In this document: piece after piece, positions 1,999 through 59,435 of the stretch | Layout of the letters: the number at the start of each line of letters is the position of its first letter | Position numbering within the stretch: the stretch's first letter is position 1 | NCBI GenBank assembly: GCA_017470715.1 | Contig: JAFUYE010000119.1 | Coordinates: 7,024 to 71,023, forward strand | Length of the DNA stretch: 64,000 bases | Source: Selenomonadaceae bacterium | Lineage (GTDB): Bacteria > Bacillota > Negativicutes > Selenomonadales > Selenomonadaceae | Direction of reading: 5' to 3' | Made by a program: the position numbers and the translations under genes | The notes under the pieces: model-generated | Database searches by the model: none | Seen by the model: only the letters and a program-made list of their open reading frames with translations | Told to the model about the DNA's origin: nothing

Positions 1999-2002
1999 GA
2001 TA

Positions 2003-2036
2003 AATTCCTAACTCCTAATTCCTAACTCCTAACTGA
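2003..2036. repeat. heptamer array (TAATTCC/TAACTCC)x~5
   Basis: Read directly; it fills the corA-stop/rtcB-start gap. Confidence 0.9.
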
Positions 2037-2038
2037 AT

Positions 2039-3114: not shown

Positions 3115-3295
3115 CTACTTTCTTTGTGCAGACAAAGAAAGTAGCAAAGAAAACGCGAACGCTCACCAGTTCGCCTTCGCCTACGCGGCGGGCGTTGCTA
3201 GTTCGTAATTCGGAGTAGTCGGCAACGCGTGCCGCTCATGCCCGCAAGTGAAACATCCTGTTTCAATTGCGGGCGCGGTCGTCATCCGTGACGGC
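3115..3295 (+). repeat. structured ~200-nt repeat, copy 1
   Basis: Modules: hairpin CTACTTTCTTTGT/ACAAAGAAAGTAG plus CAAAGAAAA; nested hairpin GCCCGCAA[TGAAACA-TCC-TGTTTCA]TTGCGGGC; terminal hairpin GTCGTCA-TCCG-TGACGGC. Confidence 0.7.
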
Positions 3296-3347
3296 TCCTA
3301 ATTTCGCATTACGAATTCCGCGTTGCGCACGGCATTTTATTTTCCGA

Positions 3348-3376
3348 TTGAATAACGGGCTTGCCTTTGATATAAT
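3348..3376 (+). promoter_or_regulatory. sigma70-like promoter upstream of dnaE
   Basis: TTGAAT (3348-3353), 17-nt spacer, TATAAT (3371-3376). Confidence 0.45.
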
Positions 3377-3448
3377 CGCGCCAAAATTTTTCGCAGGGAG
3401 GAGATTGTTACGGACTTCGCGCATCTGCACGTTCACACCGAATACAGC

Positions 3449-6775: not shown

Positions 6776-6831
6776 TAATTTTTGCGACGCGATTTTTATT
6801 TGACGTTGCTCGTGCGTATTGAGGAGGACTT

Positions 6832-8106: not shown

Positions 8107-8110
8107 AGGT

Positions 8111-8168
8111 TAGCTTTAAGCTTTAAGCTTTAAGCTTTAAGCTTTAAGCTTTTAGCTTTTAGCTTTTA
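8111..8168. repeat. heptamer array (AGCTTTA)x5 (AGCTTTT)x3
   Basis: Read directly. Starts 5 nt after the carboxypeptidase stop and is followed by CATTACG x2. Confidence 0.9.
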
Positions 8169-8211
8169 AACATTACGCATTACGAATTAATTTTTTGGGA
8201 GATGTTTTGAT

Positions 8212-15898: not shown

Positions 15899-15943
15899 GG
15901 AAATTCCCTCCAAAAGTTTATGTCGCGCCGATTATAACAAATT

Positions 15944-15976
15944 AAGGGGCAAGGGAAAAGGGACAAGGGACAAGTT
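15944..15976. repeat. heptamer array (AAGGGRM)x4
   Basis: AAGGGGC AAGGGAA AAGGGAC AAGGGAC, upstream of the fur-family gene. Confidence 0.85.
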
Positions 15977-15998
15977 GTGATGCCGCAAAAAAATTCCC

Positions 15999-16080
15999 CG
16001 GTTACTTTTAAAAAGTAACCAAACAGTTGACGCGATTAATTTACCGACAACCGAAATTTTATTTCCGCGCCGTGACGTTT
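15999..16080 (+). repeat. TTTTAAAA-palindrome element, copy A
   Basis: CCGGTTACTTTTAAAAAGTAACC + AAACAGTTGACGCGA ... CCGCGCCGTGACGTT. Flanked by 17-bp direct repeats CGCAAAAAAATTCCCCG. Confidence 0.75.
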
Positions 16081-16085
16081 TCGCA

Positions 16086-16111
16086 AAAAAATTCCCCGTG
16101 CGTGACGGGGA
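16086..16111 (-). terminator. intrinsic terminator after recO
   Basis: Minus strand reads CCCCGTCACGCACGGGG followed by AATTTTTTT. Confidence 0.6.
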
Positions 16112-16124
16112 GTTTGTCAAAGTT

Positions 16125-27114: not shown

Positions 27115-27136
27115 TGTATTTTAACCTCCGTTTTTT

Positions 27137-27202
27137 AAGGGACAAGTGGTAAGGGAGAAGGGACAAGTTAATTTCTCATTCCAAATTCCACATTCCTAAT
27201 TG
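27137..27202. repeat. composite heptamer arrays (AAGGGAC type, then ATTCCNA type)
   Basis: rplJ-rplL intergenic gap; read directly. Confidence 0.8.
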
Positions 27203-27766: not shown

Positions 27767-27947
27767 TAAAATTTCACCTCCCTGAGTTTAATGAAAAAAT
27801 CCTTCGACCACACAGACCGAAGGAAATTTTAACGTCAAAGTTTCTTTCGACCTGAGCAAGCACTTTAATCGGCGTGCCGAACTTACTTTCTGTGGTCTTG
27901 AATATTTTTTTGCGATTTATCGGAATATCGGGAACAGTAGCGGAAAT
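27767..27947 (-). promoter_or_regulatory. possible L10 (rplJL) leader
   Basis: ~180-nt untranslated stretch with stem-loops in the position where L10 leaders occur. Not matched to a consensus by eye. Confidence 0.3.
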
Positions 27948-27980
27948 AATTCCTAACTCCTAACTCCTAATTCCTAATTA
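27948..27980. repeat. heptamer array (TAACTCC/TAATTCC)x4
   Basis: Abuts the rplA stop. Confidence 0.85.
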
Positions 27981-58261: not shown

Positions 58262-58287
58262 TGCGTATACCTCCGTAAAAACAATGT

Positions 58288-58350
58288 GGAATTAGGAATA
58301 ATTACGATTGCGAATTTAATTCCTAATTCCTCACTCCTAATTCCTAATTG
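58288..58350. repeat. inverted GGAATTA / TAATTCC heptamer arrays
   Basis: Between the RNase E/G stop and the acetyltransferase start. Contains the RNase gene's TAG stop. Confidence 0.85.
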
Positions 58351-59435
58351 CAGTTCCCGTGCCGCGTGATTTCGACAAGTCCCAACGGCGTCATGTCGAC
58401 GATTGTAGTTTTGTTTCGGTCAATTCGTGCCCGTTCCCGCAAAAAATTCATCAACGTTCGTTTGTCGTCGTCGCTTGCCATGTCGATAAAGTCCACGATA
58501 ATTATTCCGCCGATGTCGCGCAGTTTCAGTTGCCGCAGAATCAATTCTGCCGCCTCAAGATTCGTGCGCAAAATCGTTTCGTCAAAATTTCGTCCGACAA
58601 ATTTGCCCGTGTTCACGTCAATCGCGGTGAGTGCTTCGGTTTTGTCGAAAATAATTTGTCCGCCGCTGGGCAACGGCAATTCGCGCTTGTGAACGTCAGA
58701 AATTTCATCCGCAATGCCGAACGTCTCAAAAATCTGCGCGTCACCTTCGTGAAAGAAAATTTTTTCGGGCGGGACAAGTTCATTCAGTTTGCGCAAAACT
58801 TTCAGGTTATCGACGATAAAATTTTCCGTGTCGGGTTCGTTGCGCAAAATTTTTTCAATCAAATCGTTGTCGTTGTACAAAAGCGCGGGCGGCTTGCGTT
58901 TGGAATTGCGTTCGAGAATTCGTTCCCACAACTTTTGCAAGGCGGCAAGTTCGTCGCTCAAAGTTTTTTCGTCGCAACCTTCGGCGGCCGTGCGAACAAT
59001 CAAGCCCGTTTCATTCGGACGAATTTTTTTCGCCAGCGCGTGAAGTCTGTCGCGTTCGTCGCCGCGAATTTTGTTTGACACGCCGATATAACCGAGCGTC
59101 GGCAAAAAAATCAAAAATTGTCCCGCCAAACTGAAATTCAACGTCGCCCGCGCAGCTTTCGTGCCGACGGATTCTTTTTCGATTTGAATCAGGACGTTTT
59201 GCCCGACAGAAAATTTTTGCGTCGATTTGAATTGCAGAAAAACATTTTTGTCGCGCCCGATGTCAACGAAAACCGCGTTCATGCCCGGCAGAAAATTTTG
59301 CACGCGACCTTTGTAAATGTTGCCGCTCAAGCGCGGGTTGTCGTCGCTTGCGGAATAAATCGCCTCAAGTTGCCCGTCGACGAGCACCGCCGCAGTCGTT
59401 TCGCCGCGTTTGCAACTCACGAGAATTTTTTTCAT
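58344..59435 (-). CDS. RNase E/G-family ribonuclease, C-terminally short
   Basis: S1 domain (GNIYKGRVQNFLPGMNAVFVDIG) and catalytic core up to LGLVEITR. The ORF ends at 363 aa with a TAG inside a heptamer array. Confidence 0.75.
   Translation of the reverse strand: MKKILVSCKRGETTAAVLVDGQLEAIYSASDDNPRLSGNIYKGRVQNFLPGMNAVFVDIGRDKNVFLQFKSTQKFSVGQNVLIQIEKESVGTKAARATLNFSLAGQFLIFLPTLGYIGVSNKIRGDERDRLHALAKKIRPNETGLIVRTAAEGCDEKTLSDELAALQKLWERILERNSKRKPPALLYNDNDLIEKILRNEPDTENFIVDNLKVLRKLNELVPPEKIFFHEGDAQIFETFGIADEISDVHKRELPLPSGGQIIFDKTEALTAIDVNTGKFVGRNFDETILRTNLEAAELILRQLKLRDIGGIIIVDFIDMASDDDKRTLMNFLRERARIDRNKTTIVDMTPLGLVEITRHGNCN

Follow-up and report, generated by a model that had tools for sequence, protein, structure and literature searches.

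The stretch analysed here (the window) comprises 64,000 nucleotides of contig JAFUYE010000119.1 from a Selenomonadaceae bacterium (assembly GCA_017470715.1). It carries tandem arrays of a 7-nt unit, TAAYTCC or, on the opposite strand, GGARTTA (family 1), at four intergenic sites: upstream of rtcB, between rplJ and rplL, at the stop codon of rplA, and between an RNase E/G-family gene and a hexapeptide-transferase gene. The genome is a 2.91-Mb metagenome-assembled genome (MAG) of 155 contigs, with 48% GC and a completeness of 95%. Loci in MAGs labelled 'uncultured Selenomonadales' show 70-80% nucleotide identity to it, and the matching metagenome contigs are taken, from their sample names, to come from ruminant-gut samples. 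Congeneric genomes, contigs and loci are designated below by G, C and L numbers.

A sequence-only reading of the window had reported arrays of four to five exact units at 2003-2036, 27168-27202, 27948-27980 and 58288-58350. Tandem Repeats Finder (TRF) and inspection of the sequence showed that each of these sites has a period-7 array of the TAAYTCC/GGARTTA family: 4.1 copies with 90% match at 2006-2034 (2003-2032 also being an exact 14-mer repeated 2.1 times), 3.4 copies with 82% match at 27178-27201, 4.7 copies with 92% match at 27947-27979 and 4.7 copies with 84% match at 58317-58349, the last facing a short inverted arm at about 58287-58304. The 14-mer dimer TAAYTCCTAAYTCC of the TAAYTCC unit is present six times in the window versus none in 100 dinucleotide-preserving shuffles. 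The four arrays are thus confirmed, while the units are not all exact, the one at 27178-27201 being degenerate (82% match). TRF detected nine more heptamer arrays of other unit families in the window. The same reading had named an assembly artefact as a danger; a 2.8-kb region of the rpl operon that includes three of the arrays is 100% identical in a scaffold of ENA ERZ28654714 and in a contig of Logan SRR12529323. Because the arrays of this region are base-identical in two independent assemblies, they are not an assembly artefact. Several contigs start or end in heptamer arrays (C54:0-33, C39:18-45, C80:24-170, C89:76 and C133:29); since arrays break the assembly, the counts given below are lower bounds.

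All four arrays belong to genes read from the reverse strand. The first (2003..2036, minus strand) is a solo G-rich arm of four units, TTAGGAG, TTAGGAA, TTAGGAG and TTAGGAA, recognised by TRF and in the alignment of relatives. It fills the whole 40-nt spacer between the stop codon of a corA-like gene (2039-2041) and the ATG of rtcB (1996-1998), and reads TGAATTCAGTTAGGAGTTAGGAATTAGGAGTTAGGAATTTATC-ATG on the rtcB strand, exactly as had been proposed. Its RNA is unstructured (-3.7 kcal/mol, z +0.9 versus shuffles).

The rplJ-rplL junction holds two arms of different families. A degenerate family-1 G-rich arm (27171..27202, minus strand; AATTAGG, AATGTGG, AATTTGG, AATGAGA) begins 7 nt past the rplJ stop. 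Its 3' partner is a family-3 arm that is C-rich on the mRNA (27137..27167, minus strand; CTTGTCC, CTTCTCC, CTTACCA, CTTGTCC). The true Shine-Dalgarno (SD) sequence of rplL, GGAGG (27125..27129, minus strand), follows both arms and precedes the ATG by 10 nt. This chimeric pair (27137-27202) folds no better than shuffles (z +1.4). A family-1 arm with a family-3 arm behind it is a recurrent combination, found at no fewer than 8 loci. An RNA-specific G·U hairpin was considered for this composite; two composites of relatives do fold (z -2.0 and -3.3) and, given the z +1.4 of the window copy, such a hairpin is not claimed. At rplA, a solo G-rich arm of four units (27947..27979, minus strand; TTAGGAA, TTAGGAG, TTAGGAG, TTAGGAA) starts at the TAA stop (27978-27980). 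It shows no structure beyond shuffles (z -0.3) and lies upstream of the L10_leader (RF00557, 27785-27913).

The fourth site is a complete hairpin. Its 5' arm, G-rich on the mRNA (58318..58349, minus strand), provides the TAG stop codon (58344-58346) of the RNase E/G-family gene. It is followed by a loop of a recurrent type, ATTACGNTTGCGAATT (58305..58317, minus strand), which is also found on C102, C104 and C45 with unrelated flanks, and by a 3' arm that is C-rich on the mRNA (58287..58304, minus strand). Then come UUGUUUUU and the GGAGG SD (58270-58274) of the hexapeptide-transferase gene. The hairpin suggested earlier at 58288-58350 is therefore real: the 58262-58352 segment folds at -23.3 kcal/mol (z = -4.25), and none of 200 shuffles folds as well. 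We read the four sites as one gene-less hairpin (58287-58349), two solo arms (2003-2036 and 27947-27979) and one chimeric pair (27137-27202).

Another array of the window, at 39987-40190, has a period of 8/24 and consists of (TAGATCGATAGATCGATAGTTTTT)x5 then (CTAACCAT)x9 between the open reading frames (ORFs) 38707..39963(-) and 40180..40896(-). Akin 8-mers of the ATCGATCT type flank a PF05635 gene in the congener G042 (L262), and the element of the heptamer arrays may have an 8-nt dialect here.

Period-7 arrays across the genome and their relation to ribosome-binding sites

Genes were called with a self-trained ORF caller (2595 genes, 87.5% coding) and starts were refined by SD linkage. A scan for exact tandem arrays of at least 3 copies gave 128 arrays at period 7 versus 32, 11, 4 and 8 at periods 4, 5, 6 and 8, and at most 32 at every other period among 4-15. 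With mismatches tolerated, 188 arrays were obtained at period 7 versus at most 11 at each of periods 5, 6 and 8-11. TRF listed 578 period-7 arrays genome-wide; AATTAGG accounts for 194, AAAGCTT for 57 and AAGGGAC for 44, the others belonging to many smaller families. The intergenic location expected from the window was borne out, with 381 of the 436 well-scoring heptamer arrays (87%) outside called genes, in the 12.5% of the DNA that is non-coding. The claim that arrays always occupy co-directional gaps did not hold as a rule of their own. Arrays in co-directional, divergent and convergent gaps number 282, 48 and 25, versus 1955, 245 and 240 such junctions overall, so that 79% of classified arrays compare with 80% of all gene junctions. 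A preference for co-directional junctions was rejected on this basis.

Within the gap, arrays keep mostly to the stop-codon side. Out of 282 arrays in co-directional gaps, 138 start within 10 nt of the upstream stop, and 73 of those abut or overlap it, often giving TAG; only 18 end within 10 nt of the start. A typical family-1 site consists of a stop codon, (A)AAGC-AATTAGG(n), a loop, (CCTAATT)m-GCTTTT and the next gene's own GGAGG. Four units are commonest among the 222 family-1 arms found (130/222). When two family-1 arms form an adjacent inverted pair, 45 of 46 pairs read G-rich arm, loop, C-rich arm, and the sole exception is the gap between two neighbouring hairpins. With all families taken together, 121 of 122 inverted pairs conform to a single arrangement for their family, and the same polarity was seen in 18/18 pairs at loci from other phyla. 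An overall strand bias relative to transcription was not retained, being weak (124 vs 105); the rule depends on position instead. Within 10 nt past an upstream stop the G-rich strand is on the mRNA (33:0 for paired and 48:4 for solo arrays), and within 30 nt before a downstream start it is the C-rich strand (29:0 and 38:8 respectively). Identical loop sequences, including that of the 58.3-kb hairpin, recur at loci with unrelated flanks, which points to copying of whole elements. Together, these data show that the arrays have a definite anatomy, a fixed polarity and rules of position.

The sequence-only reading had interpreted the arrays as phased SD-like repeats, with the tuning of translation initiation at the next gene among their possible roles. 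We evaluated by sequence the SD elements of start-proximal arrays, counting as SD a purine-rich match to the anti-SD on the mRNA strand, 4-12 nt upstream of the start. Among 104 arrays that end at most 25 nt before a start, 15 hold the best SD match, 85 leave a separate canonical SD outside and 4 have no SD. At rtcB the array is the only SD-like sequence, with an AGGA ending 7 nt before the ATG in unstructured RNA. The closest relative, G018, keeps this array with 4 units, three point changes and one extra nucleotide, whereas in G036 and the majority of the other congeners a canonical AAGGAG is found at this spacing. Thus the array probably replaced the native SD of rtcB, its last AGGA serving as ribosome-binding site, and a comparable proposal has been made for the TAACTGA repeats of Beggiatoaceae (PMC4679880). 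The picture elsewhere is different. Near starts, most arrays have their C-rich strand in the mRNA (67 vs 8 with the G-rich one), arrays cluster at stops and not at starts, they occur in convergent and divergent gaps at base-rate frequency, and some lie inside proteins. The GGAGG of rplL and its spacing are constant in 30 congeners and 10 strain-level contigs, with or without arrays upstream, that is, across all array states; its context is TGGAGG in all relatives and CGGAGG in the window's own strain. Moreover, the same units are found in Bacteroidota, a phylum largely devoid of SD pairing. The earlier description hence probably holds at rtcB and fails as a general rule: as an account of the whole family, tuning of translation initiation is very unlikely, and SD use is better described as a secondary use, probably right for rtcB and for a small minority like it. 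The arrays are real and mostly not ribosome-binding sites.

PF05635 genes bracketed by heptamer arms

Four genes of the PF05635 family ('23S rRNA intervening-sequence protein') were found in this genome. Inverted heptamer arrays with the usual polarity enclose every one of them, and the unit family differs from gene to gene. According to Pfam assignments of the neighbours, the copy on C79, with family-3 arms (AAGGGAC/CTTGTCC), lies between CheB and CheA; that on C24, with AACTAGG arms, between ATP synthase gamma and beta; that on C83, with family-2 arms (AGCTTTA), between a Mur ligase and MurG; and that on C84, with family-1 arms (GGAATTA/AATTCCT), between SecY and Adk. Inverted-repeat scores of their flanks are 25, 21, 21 and 16, compared with a median of 8 and a 99th percentile of 15.5 over 2423 genes. 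In congeners, 26 of 27 usable PF05635 loci reach the 95th percentile of the flank score and 19 reach the 99th. These results show that PF05635 genes are associated with heptamer arms. All copies seen in the assembly, which contains no 23S (LSU) rRNA gene, lie between protein-coding genes and not in rRNA helices; further copies may exist in rRNA. In five congeners (L278, L279, L280, L282 and L283, in G041, G037, G007, G014 and G004 respectively) an armed PF05635 gene lies just upstream of a gene starting MAHVVVDPITRIEGHLR, which may encode the large subunit of a [NiFe]-hydrogenase. If this assignment is right, the junction is hupS-hupL, the site of STRR hairpins in cyanobacteria (PMC2670836).

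A tree of PF05635 proteins clusters them mostly by insertion site, and the arm units differ between orthologous copies, which indicates that both arms drift together in place. The atpG-atpD junction is occupied by three separate PF05635 lineages in different species, and the subtype with family-1 arms sits at two different junctions; hence, the element does move. The pairing of unit and protein subtype was also seen across phyla. The C84 protein, with its AATTAGG-type arms, shares 56% identity (E 2e-42) with a PF05635 ORF of a Segetibacter (Bacteroidota) that has AATTAGG arms too, and only 26% with the family-3-armed C79 copy of its own genome. AATTAGG-type arms also bracket a similar PF05635 ORF in an Opitutales MAG (Verrucomicrobiota). 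(AATTAGG)x4 itself was found in at least 119 stretches across many phyla. We nevertheless rejected the argument that the same unit in many phyla proves a shared element: with same-composition control heptamers only about 2-fold rarer in viral contigs, a shared unit is weak evidence alone, and only the pairing of a unit with a protein subtype carries weight.

Turnover between strains and copies inside proteins

G018 and G036 are syntenic with positions 1-30400 of the window at about 80-89% identity. When the six array-bearing junctions of this region were compared, only that of rtcB was shared almost unchanged. At 8107-8211 one arm has 8 units here versus a 4+4 hairpin in G018. At the rplA stop, a family-1 array here and a family-2 array (GCTTTYA x4) in G018 occupy the same base. 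Arrays at rplJ-rplL and at 15.9 kb exist only in this genome of the three, the family-1 arm of rplJ-rplL being missing from most congeners as well, and at rplK-rplA a single-unit footprint remains in G018. The rplJ-rplL array took the place of an ancestral 34-45-nt spacer and was not added to it. Five states of this junction were observed among strains with identical L7/L12 and 90-95% nucleotide identity, two of which differ by 4 versus 5 units. Variation in unit number, which the earlier reading had proposed to look for, is thus present (4 vs 5; 8 vs 4). Array load is patchy over the genus: 25 arrays in 91 kb of G018, none in 70 kb of G036 and none in about 11 kb of several species. Of 18 congeners, 10 contain (AATTAGG)x3; of 12 genomes belonging to other families of the class, none does. 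These data show that the elements turn over fast between strains.

Other repeats were observed at the same junctions. In G036 (L065-L067, G036:C12), an approximately 140-nt structured repeat, TCTACTTTTCTTTTGGCGCAAAAGAAAAGTAG..., is present at the junctions orthologous to window positions 1999-2038, 8107-8211 and 15914-16124, so that several classes of repeat share these junctions as landing sites. At C133:29, C30:2092, C48:14868, C62:8504 and C89:76, family-1 hairpins whose loop is ATAACGCGAAATT(AATTACT) lie inside a larger structured repeat, so heptamer and larger structured repeats can be nested; this larger repeat is also found at window 3167-3448. Relative to G018, 47 nt have been inserted at window 6776-6831; a 12-nt duplication, CGTGCGTAYTGA, flanks the insert and takes in the upstream stop codon, and in G018 just 9 nt separate the two genes.

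Turnover bears on the view that the arrays are regulatory RNA structures (intercistronic stabilisers, attenuators, terminators or devices of translational coupling) kept for the benefit of the host. Such a role would fit the strong hairpin at 58262-58352, which is followed by a U-run and an SD, the complementarity of arms that is kept while units change, and the presence of arrays in highly expressed operons (rpl, atp, sec); roles in stability or coupling have been proposed for STRR hairpins (PMC2670836). It is hard to reconcile with presence, absence and replacement at one junction among strains of 90-95% identity, or with the lack of arrays in 70 kb of a relative as close as G036. In addition, significant structure is lacking at two of the four window sites as well as in the chimeric pair, a simple terminator scan makes no call at the 58.3-kb hairpin, and copies in frame within proteins cannot serve such roles. 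We thus regard selection for regulatory RNA as quite improbable.

Some arrays are part of long ORFs and are read as peptides, for instance QLGIRNEELGI. The case compared with orthologues is an M16C peptidase, in which 20 congeners, the two closest included, have a short loop (HYE-IENADAPLT-YSG; 27 nt, 24 nt in one). In four species this loop is swapped in frame for an 84-114-nt hairpin of two heptamer arms, and a fifth carries a 54-nt single-arm insert; the reading frame is kept in 5/5 species. The arms pair in three species (24 pairs) with 1-2 compensatory changes, three sequences making for weak statistics. In G017 the arms went from AGGAATT/AATTCCT to GGGAATT/AATTCCC, a change on both sides. 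Insertion in frame is thus tolerated. The M16C (PreP-like) gene of the present genome, C46:16891-19878 (L197), contains a 90-nt in-frame hairpin at about aa 152-178 (WNEELGIRND...NSTFQIPNFKL). The G018 protein is 99% identical to it over aa 1-150 and 88% identical past the insert site, and this drop suggests recombination at that site. Further long ORFs run through arrays at C69:588-2544, C71:12060-15729, C83:31444-33016, C24:1811-2996, C48:680-3698 and C147:6990-11949, with array-derived peptides such as QLGIRNEELGI and KSFKLEALSFK...KAQSSKLKA. Apart from C69, these may be single genes or neighbouring genes joined by the caller; the C69 ORF we presume to be one continuous protein of the phosphoethanolamine-transferase type.

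The same comparisons weigh on two further explanations. Arrays could be plain slippage products, that is, long simple sequence repeats (SSRs) arising locally wherever a 7-nt duplication is tolerated, with neither element identity nor cargo gene. Many unit families coexist in the genome, unit number differs between strains, units drift at orthologous sites, and arbitrary heptamer arrays occur in viral contigs too. Heptamers have been described as the most over-represented class of long SSRs in many prokaryotes, with polymerase slippage as the proposed cause (Mrazek et al. 2007, as reported in PMC4679880 and PMC4692102). Slippage leaves unexplained why a single unit accounts for 194 arrays and why pairs have a fixed polarity (121/122) and solo arms a strand rule, and likewise the peak at 4 units, the identical loops at unrelated loci and the bracketing of PF05635 genes. 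Nor does it account for the rplJ-rplL array, which replaced a spacer instead of growing out of it. As the source of the arrays we hold it to be unlikely.

Repeats that form G-quadruplexes, or contingency tracts subject to phase variation, would be the other possibility. Four G-tracts per arm are commonest here, as in the GGGAATC repeats that form G-quadruplexes (PMC4692102), and polymorphism of unit number exists. Family 1 has GG only and family 2 (AGCTTTA) a single G per unit, and both obey the same rules; a G-quadruplex is hence not the common denominator. The slippage-prone contingency tracts envisaged by the earlier reading fare no better in spite of the differences in unit number between strains: the arrays are located neither in promoters nor in reading frames, three independent assemblies, of which this MAG is one, have the same sequence there, and the neighbours of the arrays are housekeeping genes (rpl, atp, secY, mur). 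Both variants appear extremely improbable.

A candidate origin of the arrays and related repeat systems

The explanation that we favour, and consider probable, is that the arrays are the arms of small insertion elements resembling intervening sequences (IVSs), whose full form carries a PF05635 gene. The full form consists of the upstream stop codon, a G-rich arm of about 4 heptamers, a PF05635 gene for a four-helix bundle of about 120 aa, a complementary C-rich arm and the SD of the next gene. In a gene-less form, two arms and a short loop would give a long hairpin, of which 58287-58349 is a candidate example. A single arm beside a stop codon would be the solo form, probably a remnant or a half-element, and different unit 'dialects' may lie together as in the chimeric pair 27137-27202. 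Elements would insert into the untranslated spacer that runs from a stop codon to the following SD, or overwrite it, and now and then lie in frame within a surface loop of a protein; they may persist through doing little harm in such spacers. Later change would come from slippage, altering unit number, and from concerted drift of both arms. At rtcB, the last AGGA unit would have been co-opted as ribosome-binding site after the array had replaced the native SD.

Once transcribed, paired arms would form double-stranded stems cut by RNase III, by analogy with the IVSs of rRNA (PMC4990558). An RNase III gene is present in the genome, and only one of the four window sites forms a paired-arm stem. 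A role of the arrays in RNA processing, one of those suggested earlier, is plausible.

Several observations weigh against the IVS-like origin. No match to the transposase families Y1, IS110, DDE_Tnp_1, rve or DDE_3 was found in this 95%-complete MAG, and no mobility mechanism is known for IVSs. The clustering of PF05635 proteins mostly by insertion site indicates that movement is rare. None of the four window sites holds a PF05635 ORF; what ties them to the full element is a common unit, polarity and position. Copy number of PF05635 matches array load loosely: G036 has one armed gene and no array in 70 kb, and G018 has one PF05635 gene and 25 arrays in 91 kb. In viral contigs AATTAGG was counted 21 times versus 9 and 10 for control heptamers of the same composition. 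Lastly, gene calls stem from our own crude caller.

Candidates for a mobilising activity were few, with only two TnpB-like ORFs in the genome. A reverse transcriptase (RT) was rejected as driver: RT was seen only in G004, G008 and G014 and is missing from the array-rich G016, G017, G018 and G038. An RT ORF with the motif YMDDF is present in two copies, 94% identical to each other (C12:17049-18146(-) and C127:183-869(+)), and one PF05635 protein weakly matches bAvd (PF22296), the accessory protein of diversity-generating retroelements. A further, tentative possibility, which we consider distinctly less probable than not, is that STRR-type repeats in general are the non-autonomous progeny of an unrecognised class of mobile elements with PF05635 as sole gene. 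Its protein would recognise the dialect of its own arms as a binder or mobilising cofactor. In line with this are the separate PF05635 copy of each unit family here, the association of the AATTAGG dialect with one protein subtype in three phyla, the fixed arm polarity and the failure to find a known transposase (five families).

Heptamer repeats have been known in cyanobacteria since 1990, and their over-representation in many bacteria since 2007. The arrays described here represent a new lineage and a new unit set of this known, unexplained kind, which includes the STRR sequences (for short tandemly repeated repetitive), heptameric long SSRs and the GGGAATC repeats of Xanthomonas. The earlier comparison with STRR sequences holds, as far as 7-nt units, an intergenic location and hairpin-forming pairs are concerned. 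Like STRR sequences and long SSRs, the arrays consist of tandem 7-nt units, with several families per genome and a strongly intergenic distribution; like STRR sequences, they are tolerated inside a structured gene and form inverted hairpins between co-transcribed genes, as in hupS-hupL (PMC2670836). In contrast, the host is not a heterocystous cyanobacterium, as in the original definition of STRR sequences, but a rumen member of the Selenomonadales (Negativicutes). The units are AATTAGG, AGCTTTA, AAGGGAC and others, and the arrays are tied to PF05635 genes, a link that we did not find stated in the literature examined. A text search of the literature for the AATTAGG array as a literal string found none.

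The arrays of GGGAATC in Xanthomonas and of GGGGA(C/T)T in Nostoc come as convergent pairs of mostly four units, G-rich on the coding strand within 50 bp after a stop codon or overlapping it, and with the strands reversed when they lie upstream of ORFs (Rehm et al. 2015, PMC4692102). They share with the present ones the core GGAAT, the mode of 4 units, inverted pairs, a stop-proximal G-rich sense strand, and a length and sequence that vary between close relatives. Units here are AGGAATT/AGGAGTT, with GG only, and family 2 has one G, in contrast to the GGG or GGGG tracts of those species.

In the 23S rRNA IVSs of Coxiella and Leptospira, complementary sequences on either side of an S23p/PF05635 ORF make up a stem that RNase III cleaves (PMC4990558). 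Common to both systems are a small four-helix-bundle ORF bordered by complementary long-stem sequences, a sporadic occurrence among relatives, the replacement of a small loop by an extended stem-loop, and the status of an element regarded as selfish or neutral. Unlike those IVSs, which occupy 23S helices 9, 25 and 45, the present elements lie between protein genes of operons and once inside a protein, and their stems are built of tandem heptamers.

Most of the TAACTGA repeats of marine Beggiatoaceae are in forward orientation and immediately upstream of a start codon, where canonical SDs are rare (MacGregor 2015, PMC4679880). They resemble our arrays as abundant intergenic heptamers in 2-6 copies, found in ribosomal-protein operons and with the same unit in distant phyla, whereas our arrays lie close against stop codons and most of the genes that follow them retain an SD of their own.

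Rickettsia palindromic elements (RPEs) and repetitive extragenic palindromes (REP/REPIN) are small, dispersed, gene-less palindromic repeats, and their arms do not consist of tandem heptamers. In-frame insertion into protein genes is a known trait of RPEs, as it is seen here in the M16C gene. REPINs depend on RAYT, a Y1 transposase, and no match to RAYT/Y1 (PF01797) was found in this 95%-complete MAG, which sets the present arrays apart from REP/REPIN.

For genome annotation, the arrays matter in that they can act as a source of stop codons, lengthen ORF calls or join them, introduce in-frame peptides such as ELGIRNEELGI and occasionally take the place of a ribosome-binding site. For the biology of these repeats, the genus offers many sequenced relatives with sharply different array loads, from 0 in 70 kb to 25 in 91 kb, in which the same gene junctions are caught empty, filled and re-filled and in which the arrays are clearly associated with one small gene family, PF05635. 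An origin of the arrays as progeny of IVS-like elements, the binding of arms by PF05635 proteins and RNase III cuts in operon transcripts have thereby become testable.

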